The notes under the pieces: generated by a model
Databases searched by the model: none
What the model saw: the letters and a program-made list of their open reading frames with translations, nothing else
What the model was told of the DNA's origin: nothing
Translations under genes and position numbers: made by a program
Shown: positions 2,072-12,276 of the stretch, piece after piece
How positions within the stretch are numbered: position 1 is the stretch's first letter
Layout: every line of letters starts with the position of its first letter
Assembly (NCBI GenBank): GCA_017650365.1
Contig: JAGCEZ010000052.1
Coordinates: 1 to 14,915 of the forward strand
DNA: 14,915 bases
Source: Fibrobacterales bacterium
GTDB lineage: Bacteria > Fibrobacterota > Fibrobacteria > Fibrobacterales > CADBQJ01
Reading direction: 5' to 3'

Positions 2072-3634
2072 ATGGAAAAGAAAGAGAACGCGGCCTCCCC
2101 GTCCCCGAACAAGTTCCTCTCCGGCCCGCGGCTCGGGCTGCTGCTCCTGCTGGTCTGGTCCGCCGCCCTCGCGATCTGGGGGTTCGACCCCAAGGTGGAC
2201 CTCAACGGCGACAACGTCGCCTACCTCTCCCTCTCCCGCGGGATCCTGTCGGGAGAGGGGTTCTGCCAGACGAGCGACCCGGCCTGCCCGCCCGAGAAGC
2301 ACTTCCCGCCGGGCTATCCGCTCCTGCTCGCGGCCGCGTCGCTGGTCTCGGGCGACCTCCTCTTCCTGAAGGCCCTCAACGGCGCGCTTCTGGTCGCGTG
2401 CGCGTTCCTGCTCCGCGCTCTCTGCCTGCGGCTCGGCCTGCCTCCGCTCCTTTCGCTCGCCGCGGCCTTCGCCGTTCCGGCCAACGCCCATCTTCTGCGC
2501 TCGTCGACGATCCTGATGTCGGAGATCCCGTTCCTCTTCTGGTCGCTCCTGCTGCTCTGGCTGGCCGCGGCGCCCGCGTCCGGACGCCCGTTCTGGAAGA
2601 CCCCGCGCTTCTGGGGCGCGGCCGTCGTCTCGGCGGCCGCGGTCTACACGCGCACGGCCGGCGTCGCGCTGCCCTTCGGCGTCGTCCTCGCGCTCCTCGC
2701 GGCGAAGCGGAGGAAGGAGGCCGCCGCCTTCGCGCTGGCGAACGCCGCGCTCCTCCTCCCCTGGCAGATCCGCAACGCCGGCCTGGCGGGCGAGTCCTAC
2801 GCGTCGCAGCTCCTGGCGGTCAACCCCTACCGGCCCGAGCTGGGCCAGGCCGGCGCCGCCGAGCTGGCCGCGCGGTTCGGGCGCAACGTCGCGCGCTACC
2901 TGGGCGAGGAGATCCCCTCCGCGCTGGCGCCCGCGTTCCATCCCGACGGACCGGGCGCCGGCGGCTGGATCCTCGGGATCCTCCTCGTCGCGCTCGCCGG
3001 ACGGGGTCTCTGGAAGCTGCCGAAGGGCCGCGCTCTCCTGGGCGGCGTCCTGCTCGGGAGCTTCGGCGTGATGTTCCTCTGGCCCGAGGTCTGGGGCGGC
3101 GTCCGCTTCATGCTCGGCACGGTCCCCCTCCTGACGGTCCTCGCGCTCTGGGGCGCGCAGGACCTCGTCTCCAAAAAGGCGAAGCTCCCGCCCGCGTGGG
3201 CCTTCGCGGTCCCCGTCCTCCTGCTCTTCGGCCTGGGCGGCGTCCGGACCATGGCCCGGGCGGACTACCCGGCGCCGTGGCAGCGCTACAAGGCGCTCGC
3301 GGAGTGGTGCTCGCGGAACACGCCCGACACGGCGCTGGTCGTGGCGCGCAAGCCGACGCTCTTCTGGCTCTGGAGCTCCCGGCGCTCGGTCAACTACAAG
3401 CTGACGACGGACGCGGACGCGCTGATCGCGGACCTGGACTCCGTCGGCGCGGACTACGTCGTGGTGGAGCAGCTCGGCTACGCCTCGACGGCGCGCAACC
3501 TGGTTCCCGCGATGCAGGCGAACCCCGGGCGCTTCGCCCCGGTGGTCGCCGCGCAGAACCCCTTTACGGCTCTCTACCGGTTCCTTCCGGAGCCGCCTCC
3601 GGCCCGATCTCCGGAATCTCCTTCCGCAGAATGA
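2072..3634 (+). CDS. GT-C fold glycosyltransferase, PMT_2/ArnT-like (GT39/GT83-type polyprenyl-phosphate-sugar dependent), multi-pass membrane protein
   Basis: 520 aa with about 10 or more hydrophobic helices. The first extracytoplasmic loop carries the ArnT/PMT signature pattern D-x-x-Y-x-x-x-S-R-x-x-L-x-x-G-x-F (GDNVAYLSLSRGILSGEGF). It ends with a soluble C-terminal domain, as in ArnT and PMT. Confidence 0.65.
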   Translation: MEKKENAASPSPNKFLSGPRLGLLLLLVWSAALAIWGFDPKVDLNGDNVAYLSLSRGILSGEGFCQTSDPACPPEKHFPPGYPLLLAAASLVSGDLLFLKALNGALLVACAFLLRALCLRLGLPPLLSLAAAFAVPANAHLLRSSTILMSEIPFLFWSLLLLWLAAAPASGRPFWKTPRFWGAAVVSAAAVYTRTAGVALPFGVVLALLAAKRRKEAAAFALANAALLLPWQIRNAGLAGESYASQLLAVNPYRPELGQAGAAELAARFGRNVARYLGEEIPSALAPAFHPDGPGAGGWILGILLVALAGRGLWKLPKGRALLGGVLLGSFGVMFLWPEVWGGVRFMLGTVPLLTVLALWGAQDLVSKKAKLPPAWAFAVPVLLLFGLGGVRTMARADYPAPWQRYKALAEWCSRNTPDTALVVARKPTLFWLWSSRRSVNYKLTTDADALIADLDSVGADYVVVEQLGYASTARNLVPAMQANPGRFAPVVAAQNPFTALYRFLPEPPPARSPESPSAE

Positions 3635-6183
3635 CCTGGGCGGCCGCCGGCACGAAGACCAGCGCGGTCAGGAGCGTGCAGGAGATGGCGACCACGGCCA
3701 GTTCGCCGATGGTCCGCATGCCGTGGTGCCCGATGAAGAGCACGCCCACGAACCCGCCGACCGTCGTGAGCGACGAGGCGACCACCATCTGCCCGACGGT
3801 GTCGTAGAGCCGGCGGACGTTCCGCAGGCCGAGGCGCTCCATGCCCGAGAGCAGGTGGATGGAGGAGTCGATCCCCACGCCGAGCGCCAGCGGGATGACG
3901 ATGATGTTGTAGACGCTGAAGCGGCCCAGGTCCATCGTCAGCGAGAGGATCCCCATGACGCCGACCGTCCAGAGCGAGCCCAGCACGAGCGAGCCGAAGG
4001 CCAGCAGCGCCTTGCGCCGCGAGTCGAGCGAGAAGAGCAGCGTCAGCAGCAGGACGGCCGCCATCAGCAGGGCCAGCTTGGCGCTGTCCTGGCGCACCGC
4101 CCGCACCACGTCGGAGAAGGTGAAGCTCGAGGAGAACGAGCGCAGCTGCCGCCCGCCGAAGGTCCAGTTCCCGTAGCGGTCCTGGAACTTCTCCGCGGCC
4201 AGCGCGTTCCAGCTCTCGAACTTGCCGTAGATGAAGCCGATCTTCCCGTAGCTGCCGTCGCGCTCCTTCAGCAGGTTGAGCGCCCATTCCGGCAGGTCCT
4301 CGGGCGTGAACGCCTCCACCTTCGACATCTCGCGCAGCTTGTCGACCAGCTCCCGCTCCTCGCCCTCGGCGCGGTCGAACGCGCGGGCGTCGATCAGCTC
4401 GGCGATCTCCTCGATCACCTCGAGCCGCTCCTCCTGCTCCTCCGCCGGCGGGACGAAGGTCTTCAGCGTGAGGAAGCTCTTCAGCACGGGGTCCTTGTCC
4501 ACGTGCAGGCGGACCATCAGCGTGTCGTAGAGCGCGTCGAGCTCCTCGCGCGTGTCGCCCAGCACCACGACGGGCTGCGACGAGGTGCGCTTGCCCCCCT
4601 GCGCGACGCCGGTGTGGAAGTTCGGGCCCGCGTCCGCGGAGGCGGGGCGGGCGGCGCGCAGCTTGCGGAAGTCGTTCTCGAACCCGCACCAGGGCGCGAA
4701 GCAGGCGAGGACGACGGTCGCCGCGGCGGCGGCCGCGGTCGCCCTCTTCAGGAACTTCGCGACGTCGGCGTCCGTCCAGCGCTTCGGGAAGACGGAGAAC
4801 GGGTGCGCGGCGGGCAGGCGGCCGATGCACAGCACGAGCAGCGGCAGCACCGTGAACGCCGAGACGTAGCTGATGAAGACGCCGACCGAGGCGATGGCGC
4901 CGAATTCGTAGAAGCCGCGGAACTTCGCCGCGAGCAGCGTCAGCATGCCGGCGACCGTGGTCAGGCAGGCGAGCGACATCGGCTTGAAGAGGTCCAGGAC
5001 CGTCCTGACGAGCGCCTCCTCGACGGAGTTCCCCTCGGCCCGGAGCCTTTGCGCGGTGCCGAGGAAGTGGATGGAGTAGTCGATCCCCATGCCCAGGATG
5101 ATCGCCGCGACGAAGAGCGTGAAGGGGTTGAGCTCGCCGTAGGAGACCGCGGTGAAGCCGAGCATGAGCGTCGCGGCGTTGGCGACGTTGAACATCGCCA
5201 GGAGGGCGGCCCAGCCGCGGAAGAAGACGATCATCATCCCCAGCAGGAGGACCGTGCTGATGACCGTGGAGACGAGCCCGTCCTGCTGCATCGCCTCGAC
5301 GTCCTCGAGGCCTTCGTAGGAGCCGGCCACGCCGAAGTGGACGGTCGTCCCCCAGTCGCGGGAGCGGAAGCGCTCCAGCAGCGAGTCGGTGCGCGCGAGG
5401 ACCAGCTTGGTGAAGTCGAGGTCGGTGGCCGATCCGGTCAGCTTGCAGAGCACGACGCCGTTGATCGTCCTGTCCTCCTCGTGCTGGCCGATCAGGCGGG
5501 CCTTGAGGTGCGAAGGCAGGCAGGCCTTGGGGTCCCACGCGACCGCGGCCGTGTCCTTCTTCCCGGCCTTGGCGGAGTCCTTCCGGACCAGCTTCGTGAA
5601 GCTGTCGAAGGCGTCGGCCGCCTCGTCGGGGAGACCCAGCTCCTGCGGGATGTCGGAGTCGAACCAGACGAGCTCCTCTTCCTTTTCGCCTTCCCCGGTC
5701 AGGTCCACGGTCAGGGGGCCCTTCGCCCCCATGCGGCGCTGGAGCGTCGCGAGGTTGTCGCGCACGCGCTCCAGGTGGCGGACGGGGAGGTAGAGCAGGG
5801 CGTGTTCCGCGAAGAAGTCCGTCGGCTGGTCGATCTGCGCGGAGACGAGGATGTCCTTCCACTCGGCGTCGAGGACGCGCTTGAGCGAGTCCTGCAGGTC
5901 GGCCACGAGGAGGGCGCTGTCGGACTGGATCACCAGCATGAACTTGTCGCTGGCGCCGAACCGCCTGTTGACCTCCTGGAGGGCGAGCACGCTCGGGGTG
6001 TCCTTCGGGAGGAGGGAGGAGAGGTCGCTGTTGATCCGGATCTTCGTCGCGGCGAGCCAGCCCGAAAGGGCGAGCAGGGCGAGGGTCAGGGCGAGGAAAG
6101 GCCAGCGGAATCGGCGCAGGCGGCCGATCAGCGCGCGGGCGAAGCGCTCGGTCTTGGTTCCGTTCATCTTCGTTTTTTCCATT
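3564..6183 (-). CDS. MMPL/RND-superfamily transporter (two-repeat 12-TM exporter, HpnN/MmpL-like)
   Basis: About 873 aa from the ATG at 6183 (MEKTKMNG...). Two repeats, each with a large soluble domain followed by a 5-6 TM bundle (GLVSTVISTVLLLGMMIVFF... and ...LLMAAVLLLTLLFSLDSRRKALLAFGSLVLGSLWTVGVMG...GVGIDSSIHLL). The six-frame ORF extends to 6407, but that stretch overlaps the divergent gene's start and looks non-coding. An alternative start is the ATG at 6168. Confidence 0.85.
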
Positions 6184-8171: not shown

Positions 8172-8711
8172 ATGCGCCTGATCGAATTCGTCGCGCTCGG
8201 CGGCACCATCGGCTGGATCCTGGTGATGATGAACGTCTTCGGCTTCGGGCTGATGATCCGGAAGTGGCTGGAGATCCGGCGCTTCCAGCGCGTCGTCCGC
8301 CCGGGGCTGGCGAAGCAGATCGAGGAGCGCCTGCAGAAGGCCGGCGTGCGCGGGACCGTGCTGCTGGAGGCGGCGCGGACCGAGGTGGCGCAGTCGTGCG
8401 CGCCGCTGGAGCGCGGGATGTCGGCGCTGCAGACCATCGCGACCATCGCGCCGCTGACGGGGCTGCTCGGCACCGTGGTCGGGATCTTCAACGCGTTCCA
8501 GATCGTCTCTGAGCGCGGCCTCGACGACCCGGCGCTCTTCGCGGGCGGCATCAAGCTCGCGCTGGTCACCACGGTGATCGGCCTGGTGGTCGCCATTCCG
8601 CACGTCGTGGCCTACAACGCCTTCGCCACGGCGATCGACGCCGAGCAGAACGCGCTCGAGAACGAGCTGCTCCTCGACCTCGGCGAGCAGGAGCGGCCGA
8701 AGGGGGCCTAG
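8172..8711 (+). CDS. exbB: MotA/TolQ/ExbB-family proton channel protein (ExbB-like, short form)
   Basis: 179 aa with three TM helices. Conserved C-terminal TM region IKLALVTTVIGLVVAIPHVVAYNAF is typical of ExbB/TolQ. It starts 8 nt after nfo. Confidence 0.85.
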   Translation: MRLIEFVALGGTIGWILVMMNVFGFGLMIRKWLEIRRFQRVVRPGLAKQIEERLQKAGVRGTVLLEAARTEVAQSCAPLERGMSALQTIATIAPLTGLLGTVVGIFNAFQIVSERGLDDPALFAGGIKLALVTTVIGLVVAIPHVVAYNAFATAIDAEQNALENELLLDLGEQERPKGA

Positions 8712-8714
8712 TCC

Positions 8715-9113
8715 GTGCCGAGACGCCGCCGTCCGCTCCTGAAGCTCGACATGACGCCGCTCATCGACGTCGTCTTCCTGCTGCTGATCTTCTTCCTGGT
8801 CACCTCGATCTTCCGCAAGGACCAGACCACGCTGAACCTGCAGCTCCCGCCCGTGGGCGCGGCGGCGACCGAAGTCCCCGTGCGCCCGCTCCAGGTCGAG
8901 CTCTCCGAGACGCGGCTCGCCTTCGGCGGCGAGGTCCTCTCGTTCGAGGAGTTCGACCGGACGCTCGGCGGCGCGCCCGACCGCGAAGTCCCGGTTTCGG
9001 TGAAGATCGACGAGAACGTCCGCTACGAGCGCATCGCCAGGATGCTCGAGATCCTGCAGCGCCACGGGTTCCGGAAGCTGGACCTGGTGCAGCGCGTCAA
9101 GGAGCCCCGGTAG
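8715..9113 (+). CDS. exbD: ExbD/TolR-family biopolymer transport protein
   Basis: 132 aa from a GTG start, with AAGGGGG Shine-Dalgarno upstream. N-terminal RRRR followed by the TM helix LDMTPLIDVVFLLLIFFLV, which contains the conserved protonatable Asp. Periplasmic domain as in ExbD/TolR. It starts 3 nt after the exbB stop. Confidence 0.85.
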   Translation: MPRRRRPLLKLDMTPLIDVVFLLLIFFLVTSIFRKDQTTLNLQLPPVGAAATEVPVRPLQVELSETRLAFGGEVLSFEEFDRTLGGAPDREVPVSVKIDENVRYERIARMLEILQRHGFRKLDLVQRVKEPR

Positions 9114-9134
9114 GGCTTTCCTTCCCGACTTCCC

Positions 9135-9150
9135 CCAGCGCCGCGAGCAC
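9135..9150. repeat. Left copy of a 16-bp imperfect direct repeat CCAG(C/G)GCCGCGAGCAC, a candidate att or duplicated yhcC 3' end
   Basis: CCAGCGCCGCGAGCAC at 9135-9150 matches CCAGGGCCGCGAGCAC at 11380-11395 at 15 of 16 positions. The pair brackets the low-GC island. On the minus strand the left copy encodes ...VLAALGEVGK, which resembles the yhcC C-terminus ...VLAALEETGRF. Confidence 0.4.
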
Positions 9151-9161
9151 AAGGCGGCCTG

Positions 9162-9350
9162 TCAAGAGCTGCACGCCCGGATAAGCCCTATGATGGCAAT
9201 GCACAGGACAAGGCAGCCCAGCGCGCTTTCCTTGGCGCTTTCCTTGGCCACTTGTTTTTCGGTTTTGGAGTCGCAGTATGGGCATTGCGCCGCATCGACT
9301 GGGACGGGCGCGCCGCAATGAGAGCAGGTGCTCGTTTTTTCTCCCGACAT
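9162..9350 (-). CDS. Small zinc-ribbon membrane protein (62 aa): N-terminal C-x2-C-x10-C-x2-C ribbon plus a C-terminal TM anchor
   Basis: ATG at 9350 gives MSGEKTSTCSHCGAPVPVDAAQCPYCDSKTEKQVAKESAKESALGCLVLCIAIIGLIRACSS. Codon usage is low-GC, as in the neighbouring island genes. It is transcribed divergently from the SPFH gene. The six-frame ORF extends to 9542, but only the part from the MSGEK ATG looks coding. Confidence 0.55.
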   Translation of the reverse strand: MSGEKTSTCSHCGAPVPVDAAQCPYCDSKTEKQVAKESAKESALGCLVLCIAIIGLIRACSS

Positions 9351-9379
9351 CGTCTTTCTCTTGAAAAAGTTCGTCGCTC

Positions 9380-9415
9380 TTGACGGATGTAAAAAAAACG
9401 CACATATTGTGCAAG
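9380..9415 (+). promoter_or_regulatory. Putative sigma70-type promoter (TTGACG-17-CATATT) with an overlapping GCACA-N3-TGTGC inverted repeat; drives the SPFH gene
   Basis: An AT-rich 97-bp divergent intergenic region. TTGACG is followed after 17 nt by CATATT, about 40 nt upstream of the ATG at 9448. The palindrome GCACATATTGTGC overlaps the -10 element. Confidence 0.35.
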
Positions 9416-9447
9416 GGGAATTTTCAAAAAACACCGGAGCGCGCGAA

Positions 9448-10653
9448 ATGGCCATTTTGGACGTCGTCAAGTTCGAATCGTCAGCCGACATATTGGCCTG
9501 GAAATTTCCCAAAAGCAAACTGACCACGAAAACGACGCTCATCGTGGCCGAATCGCAGGAAGCGATCTTTTTCAGGAACGGTCAGGCGCTGGACACGTTC
9601 GGTCCCGGCCGGTATCAGCTGACCACCGACAACCTTCCCCTTCTCCAGGGACTGGTCAACCTGCCCACGGGCGGCAAGGCGCCGTTTTCCGCGGAGGTGT
9701 GGTTCGTCAACAAGGCCTACAGCCTCAACATCCTGTGGGGCACGAGCACTCCCATCCAGCTGCAGGACCCCAAGTACGGCGTCTTTGTTCCGGTTCGCGC
9801 CTTCGGCCAGTTCGGCGTTCGGGTGGACGACGTCAAGAAGTTTCTGATCAAGCTGGTGGGAACGCTTCGTTTGTTCGACACCAAGACGCTGACCGGCTAC
9901 TTCAAAGGCTTCTACCTGACCCATGCGAAGACGATGATCTCGAAGTGCCTGGTGGAGCAGAAAATCCCGGTGCTCGAGATCAACGCCAACCTGCTCGCCC
10001 TTTCGGAGTCGCTCAAGTCGCAATTGCAGGGGGTCTTCGACGAATACGGCATCACGCTTGCGTCGTTCATGTTGAACTCCATCTCGGTGCCCGACGACGA
10101 TCCCGGCGTTCAGAGACTCAAGGCCGCGTTGGCCAAGAAGGCCGAGATGAGCGTCCTGGGATACGACTACCGCACCGAACGCAGCTTCGACACGATGGAA
10201 CAAGCGGCCTCGAACAAGGGGGTCGGAGCCGGACTGATGGACGCCGGGGTGGGGCTGGGCATGGGGCTCGGACTCGGAGGGCCCTTGGGCAAACTGATGG
10301 GCCAGGTGGCGTCGCAGCTGCAAACGCAGCCGCCGGCTTCCGCGTCGTCATCGGAAGCGACGATTACCTGCGACAAGTGCGGCGCCTCGTATCCGAAGGG
10401 AAGCAGGTTCTGCCCCAACTGCGGAGACGCGTTCAATCCCTGCCCCAAGTGCGGCGCCGACATGCCCGAGGGGAAACCCTGTCCCAAATGCGGCTTCGTG
10501 CCGAAAAAATGCCCCAATTGCGGGGCAACGCTTGCAGATGGCGTCAAGTTCTGTCCGGAATGCGGATCCGCCACTGTCAAGAAGTGTTCCGCCTGCGGAA
10601 CGGAATTGGCTCCCGGAGCCAAGTTCTGTCCTGAATGCGGCGCCAAAGCCTAA
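9448..10653 (+). CDS. SPFH/Band-7 family protein (Band_7_1, COG4260-type) with four tandem C-terminal zinc ribbons
   Basis: 401 aa. The N-terminus MAILDVVKFESSADILAWKFP...LIVAESQEAIFFRNGQALDTFGPGRYQLTTDNLPLL matches the conserved start of the PF13421/YdjI-like SPFH family. Then a Gly/Met-rich linker. The C-terminus carries 8 CxxCG motifs, which form 4 C-x2-C-x9-11-C-x2-C ribbons. Codon usage is low-GC and differs from the flanking genes. Confidence 0.85.
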   Translation: MAILDVVKFESSADILAWKFPKSKLTTKTTLIVAESQEAIFFRNGQALDTFGPGRYQLTTDNLPLLQGLVNLPTGGKAPFSAEVWFVNKAYSLNILWGTSTPIQLQDPKYGVFVPVRAFGQFGVRVDDVKKFLIKLVGTLRLFDTKTLTGYFKGFYLTHAKTMISKCLVEQKIPVLEINANLLALSESLKSQLQGVFDEYGITLASFMLNSISVPDDDPGVQRLKAALAKKAEMSVLGYDYRTERSFDTMEQAASNKGVGAGLMDAGVGLGMGLGLGGPLGKLMGQVASQLQTQPPASASSSEATITCDKCGASYPKGSRFCPNCGDAFNPCPKCGADMPEGKPCPKCGFVPKKCPNCGATLADGVKFCPECGSATVKKCSACGTELAPGAKFCPECGAKA

Positions 10654-10679
10654 GCTCATGCAACCATAGAGAGGAAGAA

Positions 10680-11354
10680 ATGTCATCCAAAGTCGTCACT
10701 CTGATTTGCGGGTGGGCCTTTGCTGCTCTTGTGGTCGCGGTAATGCTTCTGCTTGGCCATGACCAGACCGGCGGAAACATTCCCGTCGTTTACAAGACCG
10801 CATGCGCCTGCGTTTCCTTGGCAATCCTCGTGGGAACCCACTTGGCCGCGTTCTCGGGAGGGCATCCCAAACGCATAGCGACGGTGGTTCTCTGGGTCGC
10901 GCTATTGCTCTTTACGGCGGTTTACTCCACGTTCACGATGATGTCCGACGAACCCCGCCTGGTCGCCTACATCGCGGTCAATCTATTGACTTTTGGCGCC
11001 GTTTCCGTTTTGAGCTTCGTTCTTTGGAGTTCCGCTACACGCGGCGATGCAAGCCAGCGAGCCTGTTTCGAGACCAAACGGGCGATGCTCCGAAGCCGCA
11101 TCGTGGCAGACGCCATGTGTCATGGCGCCGCCGGCGTCAAGTACGCCGAACAGCTTCGGACTCTTGCCGAAAACCTTCGCTTCCAGGACGATTCGGCGAC
11201 TGTCGAACAAGACGAACAGATTTTGGATCGCCTAAACGACTTGTCGGAGCACCTTGCCGAAGAAGGTTATCCTGTCCAGGAACGCATCGACGAGATAGAC
11301 GACCTCGTCAAACAGCGCAACTTCGCGGTGAAGTCGCTGAAAAGCCTTCATTAG
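10680..11354 (+). CDS. Integral membrane protein (4 TM) with a C-terminal cytoplasmic acidic/coiled-coil domain; unknown function
   Basis: 224 aa. GAGGAAG Shine-Dalgarno 5 nt upstream of the ATG at 10680. Four hydrophobic helices within residues 5-116, then a charged helical tail (…EQDEQILDRLNDLSEHLAEEGYPVQERIDEIDDLVKQ…). Low-GC codon usage, as in the SPFH gene 26 nt upstream. Confidence 0.7.
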   Translation: MSSKVVTLICGWAFAALVVAVMLLLGHDQTGGNIPVVYKTACACVSLAILVGTHLAAFSGGHPKRIATVVLWVALLLFTAVYSTFTMMSDEPRLVAYIAVNLLTFGAVSVLSFVLWSSATRGDASQRACFETKRAMLRSRIVADAMCHGAAGVKYAEQLRTLAENLRFQDDSATVEQDEQILDRLNDLSEHLAEEGYPVQERIDEIDDLVKQRNFAVKSLKSLH

Positions 11355-11358
11355 CCCG

Positions 11359-12276
11359 TCAAAACCGACCGGTCTCCTCCAGGGCCGCGAGCACGGCCCG
11401 GACGATGGCGTTCCGGTCGCCGCTCCACGCGGGCGCGAGGAGCATGTCCGACGGGGTCTCGCCCGAGACGCGCTCCACCGCGGTCGAGCGCGGGAGGATG
11501 GACGCGAACTCCGCGACCCCGCGCGCGTACTCCTCCAGGGTCGGGAGCGCGAACTCGCCTCGTTCCCACTCCTCCGCCAGCCGCGTCCCCTTCACGACGT
11601 GGAGCGGGTGGATCTTGACGCTCTCCACGGGGTGCGCGGCCAGAAAACGCGCCGTCGTTTTCCAGTCTTCGGGCGTCTCTCCGGGCAGTCCGAGGATGAC
11701 GTGCGCCGCGAGGGAGACGCGCGGGTTCTTCGCGGGAGTCCCGTCGCGGAAAAGAGCCCGGGCGTCCGCCCACTCCGCGGCGGTGTGGCCGCGCCCGATC
11801 CGCGCCAGCGTCCGGTCGTTCGCGCTCTGCAGCCCGAGCTCCAGGACGATTGGCTTGCGTTCCGCCAGCTCCTCGAGCAGGTCGCGCACGCCCTCGTCCA
11901 CGCAGTCCGGGCGCGTGCCGATCGCGAGGCCGTCCACGCGCTCGTCGGCGAGGATCGATTCGTAGACCGCGCGGAGCCTTTCGGGCGCGCCGTAGGTGTT
12001 GGACCAGGGCTGCAGGTAGGCGAGGACCCCTGCGTCGGGGCGTTTCGCCTTCAGGCGCGCGATCCCCTCGTCGAGCTGCTCGGCGACGCTCTTCCGCGTC
12101 CCCGCCACGGGCGAGAAGGAGCGGTTGTCGCAGTAGGAGCAGCCGCCCGTCCCGCGCGTCCCGTCGAGGTTCGGGCAGCGGAAGCCGGCGTCGAGGACGA
12201 CCTTCCGCGTCTCCTTCCTCCCGGGAAAGAGTTCGCGCAGGAAGGAGGCGTAGCTCTTGAACGGGAGTCCGCTCAT
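11359..12276 (-). CDS. yhcC: Radical SAM protein, TIGR01212 (YhcC) family
   Basis: 305 aa. Motif KVVLDAGFRCPNLDGTRGTGGCSYCDN, with Cys residues in YhcC-family arrangement. The start overlaps the manC stop (ATGA). Confidence 0.88.
   Translation of the reverse strand: MSGLPFKSYASFLRELFPGRKETRKVVLDAGFRCPNLDGTRGTGGCSYCDNRSFSPVAGTRKSVAEQLDEGIARLKAKRPDAGVLAYLQPWSNTYGAPERLRAVYESILADERVDGLAIGTRPDCVDEGVRDLLEELAERKPIVLELGLQSANDRTLARIGRGHTAAEWADARALFRDGTPAKNPRVSLAAHVILGLPGETPEDWKTTARFLAAHPVESVKIHPLHVVKGTRLAEEWERGEFALPTLEEYARGVAEFASILPRSTAVERVSGETPSDMLLAPAWSGDRNAIVRAVLAALEETGRF
11380..11395. repeat. Right copy of the 16-bp imperfect direct repeat (inside the yhcC 3' end)
   Basis: CCAGGGCCGCGAGCAC lies inside the last codons of yhcC (…VLAALEE…). 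See the left copy at 9135-9150. Confidence 0.4.

Follow-up and report, generated by a model that had tools for sequence, protein, structure and literature searches.

An integrase-less genomic islet at the 3' end of yhcC/mnmL in Fibrobacterales, with variants at the same point in related lineages

Genomic islands encoding a tyrosine integrase insert into the 3' ends of tRNA or protein genes, bringing along a replacement 3' end. Islets devoid of an integrase are also known, and the definition of cis-mobilizable elements (CIMEs) has been given for them (PMC5704250); orphan 3' ends at type VI secretion system (T6SS) effector, Rhs and contact-dependent inhibition (CDI) loci have been attributed to homology-facilitated illegitimate recombination, HFIR (PMC5361080), a process described in E. 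coli (PMC3240628). Here we analyze an island of about 2.2 kb, located between exbD and yhcC/mnmL in a 14,915-bp stretch of DNA, referred to below as the window, which is the whole contig JAGCEZ010000052.1 of a metagenome-assembled genome of a Fibrobacterales bacterium (GCA_017650365.1). The yhcC/mnmL family makes mnm5s2U in tRNA (10.1101/2023.12.21.572861; 10.64898/2026.05.18.725915). The island is a polymorphic, non-autonomous genomic islet without integrase, which exchanged the extreme 3' end of this gene for one of its own. Its geometry is confirmed, its mechanism is not: an insertion guided by homology and independent of recombinases is the explanation that we favor, with confidence not exceeding an even balance.

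The repeat, the empty sites and the severed 3' end of yhcC

A preliminary description of the window, made from the sequence alone, had reported a 15/16 direct repeat bracketing the island and proposed site-specific integration into the 3' end of yhcC. By sequence search of the window, the left 16-mer, CCAGCGCCGCGAGCAC, is found at 9135-9150, as described, while the right one, CCAGGGCCGCGAGCAC, lies at 11379-11394, one base lower than the 11380-11395 initially given. Alignment of the two junctions, recommended in the same description, lengthens the repeat to 20 nt, 18 of which match: the left copy, TCCCCCAGCGCCGCGAGCAC, spans 9131-9150 and the right copy, TCCTCCAGGGCCGCGAGCAC, spans 11375-11394, within the functional yhcC. 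They share a perfect core of 11 nt, GCCGCGAGCAC (left core 9140-9150); in L080, one of the related contigs introduced below, 19 out of 20 positions match. The spacing of the copies is 2,244 nt, and the segment that they bracket has a GC content of 57%, versus 69% for the genome, the profile, at about 0.69 outside, dropping to 0.50-0.62 precisely in the interval between the copies. The island proper (9151-11374, the S variant) is delimited by this profile and by its absence from two related contigs, L056 and L048; its composition is foreign, and it was horizontally acquired.

Statistics on chance occurrence, computed within the window, are suggestive rather than decisive. Allowing up to 2 mismatches, only these two copies of the 16-mer are present in the 14.9 kb (expected 0.20); at least 2 matches were reached in 8 of 200 shuffles. 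A direct 15/16 match between random zones of 100-300 nt in the high-GC flanks was observed in 0-2% of 400 trials per zone size, and a general repeat finder listed the pair as one among more than 60 short families, not outstanding within the window. A chance repeat was rejected on the evidence of the empty sites and of a 34/35 repeat in L078, both described below. One position inside the repeat (9139 and 11383), corresponding to the third base of an Ala codon of yhcC, is variable in both copies among otherwise near-identical contigs, while the neighboring bases are invariant: the left/right pair is C/G in the window, T/C in L080, G/C in L083 and G/T in L078, the right copy of L089 has A, and the empty sites have C.

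Contigs of the same species were collected from ruminant-gut metagenomes by scanning for YhcC relatives and by exact look-up of the ExbB protein. L056 is free of the island, with flanks 99.5% (left) and 99.1% (right) identical to those of the window, and so is L048, with flanks about 98% identical. Both contain a single copy of the repeat, where the two flank alignments overlap by exactly 20 nt, corresponding to window 9131-9150 and 11375-11394. In these contigs yhcC encodes 311 aa, finishing with ...VLAAL(G/E)EVGKESPTGAP-stop, and ends 17 nt inside the convergent exbD (in L056, the gene calls are 2400-2762 for ExbD and 2746-3681 for yhcC). Since yhcC of the empty site runs into the sequence found to the left of the island, the left copy is part of the gene's native 3' end, now displaced; this end occupies 9097-9150 on the minus strand, reads VLAALGEVGKESPTGAP-stop and is severed from its gene. 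It shows no difference from the intact 3' end of L056 and one from that of L048, and the left junction, from exbD through GAGCAC, is the same as L056 at every base. Read on the minus strand, the tail in the left copy, initially described as a degenerate paralogue, is in fact identical to the functional yhcC terminus of L056.

The right copy is a hybrid within the working gene (11359-12276, minus strand, 305 aa), whose last six codons, ETGRF-stop (11359-11378), derive from the island-side DNA to the left of the repeat and replace the native tail. The prediction that this copy encodes the YhcC C-terminus, ...VLAALEETGRF-stop, was correct: the product is a radical-SAM tRNA-modification protein of the TIGR01212 family (NCBIfam, 250.3 bits versus a cut-off of 180), in which the Pfam domains Radical_SAM and Radical_SAM_C extend to residue 300. 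Likewise, comparison with the 3' ends of the island-free alleles, which hold one repeat copy and the tail now found at the distal junction of the window, upholds the view that the element brought a new 3' end and left the old one behind. Identical junctions are found in all occupied contigs of the species (L054, L055, L057, L064, L065, L070-L077 and L080-L086), and remnants of the old tail are also seen in L080, L083, L078, L087 and L089.

As many as five different tails follow the ...VLxxLE motif among close YhcC relatives; the yhcC tail is therefore clearly tolerant of change. That the new tail is a chance reading of the 3' untranslated region of the last island gene, ORF3, as a short similarity with L063 might suggest, was considered and neither adopted nor excluded; against it, the ORF3-yhcC junction is identical in the S variant and in the M variant (described below), although the latter is diverged by 16%, and the tail length is typical of the family. 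The island-free 311-aa product, on the other side, is 6 residues longer than the family norm, and its last five codons (PTGAP-stop; window 9097-9113, L056 2746-2762) are antisense to the last codons of exbD (KEPR-stop). This native tail, hereafter called B type, may itself be a read-through from an earlier rearrangement at the junction. Within the N-terminus of exbD (8732-8743), 4 single-nucleotide polymorphisms (SNPs) within 12 nt (RRRRPLLKL versus RRRRQLLRL) distinguish the occupied contigs, without exception, from the outgroups and the two empty contigs, a split not seen in the remaining flank; the patch might mark the occupied haplotype by linkage, or result from gene conversion by an exbD paralogue.

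SNPs in the flanks define two clades, each with occupied and empty members; between clades, the island diverges by 1.17%, versus 0.7-1.4% for the adjacent flanks. The polarized SNPs conflict, which indicates recombination; with both states in both clades, the attempt to call gain or loss from the flank phylogeny was dropped. The flanks are, moreover, strongly mosaic: identity drops to 92% in L065 over the 5' half of yhcC, and L058 combines a window-like exbB with an exbD resembling that of L001, a contig of a sister lineage. Such mosaicism implies frequent homologous recombination. Individual empty strains may be ancestral, or may have arisen by deletion between the repeats or by homologous recombination with empty DNA.

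To the right, yhcC is followed by manC and glycosyltransferase genes. This region (window 11395-12276 and rightwards) is mosaic, with yhcC alleles ranging from 84 to 100% identity across L065, L083-L086, L078 and L087, while exbB and exbD are 97-100% identical among those strains; it looks like a recombination-prone surface-polysaccharide locus starting at the island. The Logan contig L077 coincides with window 9109-11408, that is, the island plus 26 nt past the left repeat and 14 nt past the right one: such short ends fit the branching of the assembly graph that would be expected from coexisting occupied and empty alleles in SRR12529117.

Related islands at the same point in other lineages

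Other lineages of Fibrobacterales harbor related variants, of 2.2, 2.6 and 4.2 kb, and the point of yhcC that they occupy is the same. Each adjoins the displaced tail of its own host lineage, with repeats of 20 nt in the window, 35 in L078, 47 in L087 and 0 in L089. The displaced tail is of the B type, overlapping exbD, in the window species and in L078; it is of a second type, C (AIVAAVLSELERLPAD-stop), beside a gene with a helix-turn-helix (HTH) domain, in L087, while in L089 only RLPAD-stop is left.

Two contigs, L078 and L079, were reached through the one homologue (72% identity, in L078) of the small open reading frame (ORF) of the island, and carry it at the same position between exbD and yhcC. 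In L078 the 3' part of the host yhcC is 86.0% identical to that of the window, while the two larger island genes, encoding an SPFH protein and ORF3, are 99.42 and 99.71% identical; the repeat matches at 34 of 35 nt and the stranded fragment encodes IVRAVLAALEELGGKGPTGTP-stop. L083-L086 have left flanks 97-98% window-like and an island 99% identical, next to a yhcC only 84-87% identical. Across hosts, SPFH and ORF3 are thus 99.1-99.7% identical, against 84-87% for the adjacent yhcC 3' parts.

The L and M variants were found by a survey of YhcC tails. The former, of 4.2 kb, is represented by L087, where it is located in an L001-like host, between yhcC and the small HTH gene, and contains a zinc-ribbon/TM2 gene, SPFH and ORF3, plus two more genes on the yhcC side of ORF3; its SPFH-ORF3 segment is 89.5% identical to the window. 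Its left junction holds a 47-nt fragment of the host's own yhcC end, GGDRNAIVAAVLSELERLPAD-stop. L063, a 2.6-kb contig of 55% GC, was considered as a donor genome or other context and proved to be a fragment of the L variant, 95.3% identical to L087. The M variant (L089 and L090) is 2.63 kb long and 84% identical to the island of the window. The flanks of L089 are 99.0 and 98.2% identical to those of L001, which therefore represents its empty site: comparison of the two reveals a replacement of 24 nt by 2,632 nt, without duplication or flanking repeat, the right exchange falling within an identity block of about 27 nt.

A functional yhcC is maintained in every occupied host, with ...RAVL(A/G)ALEE followed by either ETGRF-stop or R-stop, and this is true also for the hosts of the C type, where the native end is AAVLSELERLPAD-stop. 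In window equivalents, the stranded fragment ends at 11394 in the window type, at about 11406 in L078 and at 11423 in L087, and is missing in L089. Four distinct distal joins are observed: GAGCAC to AAGG, GACGATCG to GCAAAGG, GTCGCCGC to CATACTG, and GAAGGCG to GACCGG. Among the native yhcC tails to which related islands are joined, at least two kinds can be told apart, type B at exbD and type C at the HTH gene, a situation which a single origin followed by vertical descent cannot explain.

These data bear on three other explanations of the repeats. Direct repeats around an insertion might be the target-site duplication of a transposase, a reading of practically negligible probability: it is refuted by the 2 mismatches between the 20-nt copies, seen in strains with flanks of 99.7% identity or more, and again by repeat lengths of 20, 35 and 47 nt, which are not transposase-like, and neither terminal inverted repeats nor a transposase were found for the island.

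Alternatively, the island might be ancestral and the repeat a chance microhomology, empty strains deriving from microhomology-mediated deletions that fused yhcC to non-coding DNA downstream of exbD. The island-free tail, 6 codons over the family norm and running antisense into exbD as a read-through would, is in keeping with this possibility, as are the occupied and empty alleles in both flank clades and the similar divergence of island (1.2%) and flanks (0.7-1.4%) between them. We regard it as very unlikely, and largely refuted by the true yhcC fragments stranded beside the islands (34/35 nt in L078, 47 nt including GGDRNAIVAAVLSELERLPAD-stop in L087); moreover, the B-type tail is functional in a second, more diverged lineage (P0136) and the composition of the island is foreign. 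Deletion between repeats may account for single empty strains, not for the origin of the repeats.

The third explanation, already put forward in the preliminary description, sees in the island what is left, after decay, of a larger element with an integrase (a phage, or an integrative and conjugative or integrative and mobilizable element, ICE or IME), which lost its recombination genes by internal deletion while keeping its ends. Both junction repeats are indeed kept, and S resembles a reduced L: in L, two additional genes separate ORF3 from yhcC, and the TM2 gene at the left is longer. However, these two genes, encoding a 316-aa lipoprotein-like and a 150-aa protein, have no Pfam match and no recombinase domain; phage or conjugation genes are found in no variant; and the three core genes are self-contained, being conserved as a module in Clostridia and further phyla, where their chromosomal surroundings are ordinary. 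The proposal is accordingly unsupported, and we hold it for improbable.

The slot between yhcC and exbD is variable also beyond the SPFH islands (L001 3503-3826, L025, L058; L088 2123-2452). In some lineages it hosts an HTH gene of the XRE type, encoding 107 aa; the stop codon of this gene overlaps that of yhcC, and upstream there is a palindrome (GTTGCGAACTCGCAAC); no repeats were found around this gene in L001. In L088 the slot contains a gene fragment of lower GC content, Ion_trans-like; the tail of L088 (EALREQ-stop), considered as the trace of yet another insertion there, is instead of the C type, shortened by a deletion of 3 codons. Homology between the B-type tail and the intergenic DNA of the C type was also considered, and discarded because the alignment was unconvincing. 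L001 itself (CADBQJ010000252.1, RUG14205) is titled Fibrobacter succinogenes; its GC content, however, is about 69%, and between its YhcC relatives and the YhcC proteins of Fibrobacter identity is only about 50%. NCBI names the window proteins 'Fibrobacterales bacterium', and the title of L001 is probably erroneous as to species.

Mechanism of insertion

Of the initial proposal, the structure stands, as an insertion into the 3' end of a gene proven by empty alleles and stranded tail, while recombination between att sites by an integrase is not demonstrated: no variant has a recombinase, the fragments end at different points, the reconstructed attP site shows no arm repeats and no convincing dyad, and descent from a larger element is unsupported. 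The lack of an integrase or recombinase in the island, noted from the start, was confirmed by Pfam and NCBIfam domain searches and holds for the rest of the 14.9-kb window; no recombinase is found in the 2.2-, 2.6- and 4.2-kb variants either, nor in the window flanks. No integrase-bearing or helper element is found at the site among about 35 contigs of the locus. In 31 distant loci, the 97 ORFs downstream of yhcC matched 50 Pfam families; no recombinase is among the 25 of these that were listed. The list holds every family present in more than one ORF, so that a recombinase matched by a single ORF may have escaped it, and the negative is a weak one.

The repeats might still be the attL and attR sites of a CIME-like non-autonomous element, acted upon by a recombinase encoded elsewhere in the genome, or on a helper, and targeting the 3' end of yhcC. 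Several features make this a possible, though not a probable, explanation. Direct repeats flank the island, empty sites are precise, and the supply of a surrogate 3' end follows a classical architecture; the same target is used in different lineages, each with its own displaced tail, and near-identical cargo is found in hosts 14% apart in yhcC. The repeat of L078 is long (34/35 nt), and the CIME concept is an established one (PMC5704250). The dissimilar distal joins could be reconciled with it if a single original att site had been variously trimmed. However, apart from the lack of a recombinase in any variant or flank, and of a helper element in the contigs of the locus, the distal breakpoints vary among variants, and L089 has no repeat at all.

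Reconstruction of the excised circle yields the attP joint ...CTCCTCCAGGGCCGCGAGCAC followed by AAGGCGGCCTG... (also written CTCCTCCAGGGCCGCGAGCAC followed by AAGGCGGCCTGTCA), in which no arm-type repeats, no inverted repeats and no convincing dyad could be recognized. A 6-nt dyad, GGGCCG-CGAGCA-CGGCCC, does lie on the core of the right copy in the window, and the left junction of the window breaks at the edge of its spacer, in favor of this explanation; it is, however, limited to this copy, being absent from the empty site and from L078, and the background of such dyads in the flanks is 0.09 per 40 nt. The attP joint has no exact match in viral contigs. Among assembled contigs, all 10 with an exact ORF3 are chromosomal, and L077 ends in the flanks instead of closing into a circle; circular forms, looked for in the viral scan and in the ORF3 contexts, were not seen.

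A broader version of this explanation, according to which S, M and L are a family of recombinase-less cassettes, homing to the yhcC/mnmL 3' end across Fibrobacterales species by means of a 33-65-nt copy of the target and mobilized by a site-specific recombinase acting in trans, appears doubtful; the 33-nt segment in question is CTCCTCCAGNGCCGCGAGCACGGCCCGGACGAT. Such cassettes would make up a satellite-like class of elements, with a conserved SPFH/zinc-ribbon cargo that might serve in stress or defense.

The data fit recombination anchored by homology at least as well as the action of an integrase, and it is to a homology-guided insertion, requiring no recombinase, that we give preference, at the level of an open bet. 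The incoming DNA would consist of the island with a short 3' segment of yhcC: one exchange would occur within the yhcC homology, through the host homologous recombination, while the distal end would be sealed by a short-homology or illegitimate join within the last 20-85 nt of the resident gene. Such an event would correspond to HFIR, or to a Campbell-type crossover between short homologies, and a dedicated integrase would be unnecessary. The joins may cluster because the 3' end of yhcC overlaps its left neighbor (exbD here, the HTH gene in sister lineages), so that joins further left would damage the neighbor, and joins further right would generate long, unstable repeats. Presence and absence of the island would then spread among strains by ordinary homologous recombination in the flanks.

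Some considerations weigh against this preference. It relies on HFIR or on short-homology crossovers, which seldom occur, whereas junctions must have formed independently at least twice; insertion at a 3' end with a surrogate end is the classical signature of tyrosine integrases; and the varied repeat lengths could equally result from later trimming of one att site. The negative results for recombinases and circles cover individual contigs, not whole genomes, and it is from neighbor overlap and long-repeat instability that we infer the reason for the clustering of the joins.

Cargo, significance and comparison with known systems

The cargo of the island is a module of three genes: a zinc-ribbon membrane gene (with a transmembrane, TM, or TM2 segment), divergent from a gene for an SPFH-zinc-ribbon protein, which is followed by a gene for a membrane protein of about 220 aa. 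In the window, the first (9162-9350, minus strand) encodes 62 aa, with an N-terminal zinc ribbon (Pfam DZR/Zn_Ribbon_1) and a C-terminal hydrophobic helix; longer versions, with zinc ribbon and TM2, occupy its position in L063, L068, L087 and L089. This small ORF contains a perfect 12-nt tandem duplication at 9223-9246 (GCGCTTTCCTTG twice), producing KESAKESA, which is not present in the L078 version. The SPFH gene (9448-10653, plus strand) encodes 401 aa, with a Band_7_1 domain (PF13421, E=2e-46, 158.6 bits versus a gathering threshold of 24), a Gly-rich linker and several C-terminal zinc ribbons (Zn_Ribbon_1, E=1e-23). ORF3 (10680-11354, plus strand) encodes a 224-aa membrane protein with a charged helical C-terminal half, for which no match was found in Pfam, NCBIfam, PADLOC or PHROG; it is homologous to the gene following the SPFH gene in the Clostridia locus L068, and is the conserved third gene of the module. 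Left of the island, domain searches identify exbB (8172-8711, plus strand) and exbD, of the ExbD/TolR family (8715-9113, plus strand; Pfam PF02472, E=1e-21).

SPFH homologues are numerous (5,507), the nearest beyond the island family being about 55% identical. The module recurs in Clostridia (L068/L069), in a housekeeping context. A looser form of it is seen in L067 (1-3000 and 8587-9233), where an SPFH-zinc-ribbon homologue of 56% identity has as neighbors a VbhA/Fic pair, a ThiF-like gene and two genes for reverse transcriptases, a neighborhood which is defense-island-like. Membership in a defense system was discarded, as none of the three island proteins matched the PADLOC models. A viral origin of the SPFH gene was also discarded, no close relative being found in viral contigs, nor any informative PHROG match.

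In B. subtilis, two membrane proteins, YdjH and the zinc-ribbon protein YdjG, recruit YdjI, which belongs to the SPFH family (PMC8581546, PMC9239133). The pspA-ydjGHI (samGHI) locus resembles the module in its components, an SPFH protein of the Band_7_1 type and two membrane proteins, one of them small and provided with a zinc ribbon. In contrast to it, the island has no pspA (a PspA gene was found neither in the window nor in the L067/L068 contexts), its gene order is different, and its zinc ribbons are fused to SPFH: the likeness is one of composition. By this analogy, a role of the cargo in membrane organization or membrane stress seems plausible.

The locus offers a clean natural case, in an uncultured rumen lineage, of a complete foreign module lodged at the very 3' end of a housekeeping gene that stays active, and empty, occupied and variant alleles have all been recovered. 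The att-like scars described here probably arose without an integrase: the classic picture of an att scar may form in the absence of one encoded by the element, which recommends caution in deducing integrases from repeats alone. The three-gene module, widespread (thousands of homologues) and uncharacterized, is evidently transferable as a unit. Were a recombinase acting in trans to prove responsible, yhcC would be a new integration target and the islands a new family of satellite-like elements.

The islet is fairly ordinary in kind, its integrase-less type being already known. It shares with the CIMEs and integrase-less islets (PMC5704250) the attL/attR-like repeats in the 3' end of a gene, the lack of integration and transfer genes, the polymorphic presence and the precise empty sites. 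Unlike them, it has no related integrase-bearing element at its target in the approximately 35 locus contigs, its repeat length and distal breakpoint vary, and no origin from an ICE or IME backbone is apparent. With the tyrosine-integrase islands it has in common a gene kept intact by a surrogate end, and a short perfect core within imperfect flanking similarity, but no integrase was found in cis, no arm repeats were recognized, and the stranded fragments end at different points. The displacements at Rhs, CDI and T6SS loci (PMC5361080) provide a further parallel: there too, resident gene and incoming DNA have a conserved stretch in common, the latter delivers a new 3' end together with cargo, and the old 3' end is left as an orphan downstream, through a distal join which is non-homologous and variable, with no recombinase involved. 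The island differs from these loci in its target, a housekeeping tRNA-modification gene of which only the last 6-12 codons are exchanged, and in its cargo, a complete and unrelated three-gene module in place of a toxin tip with its immunity gene.

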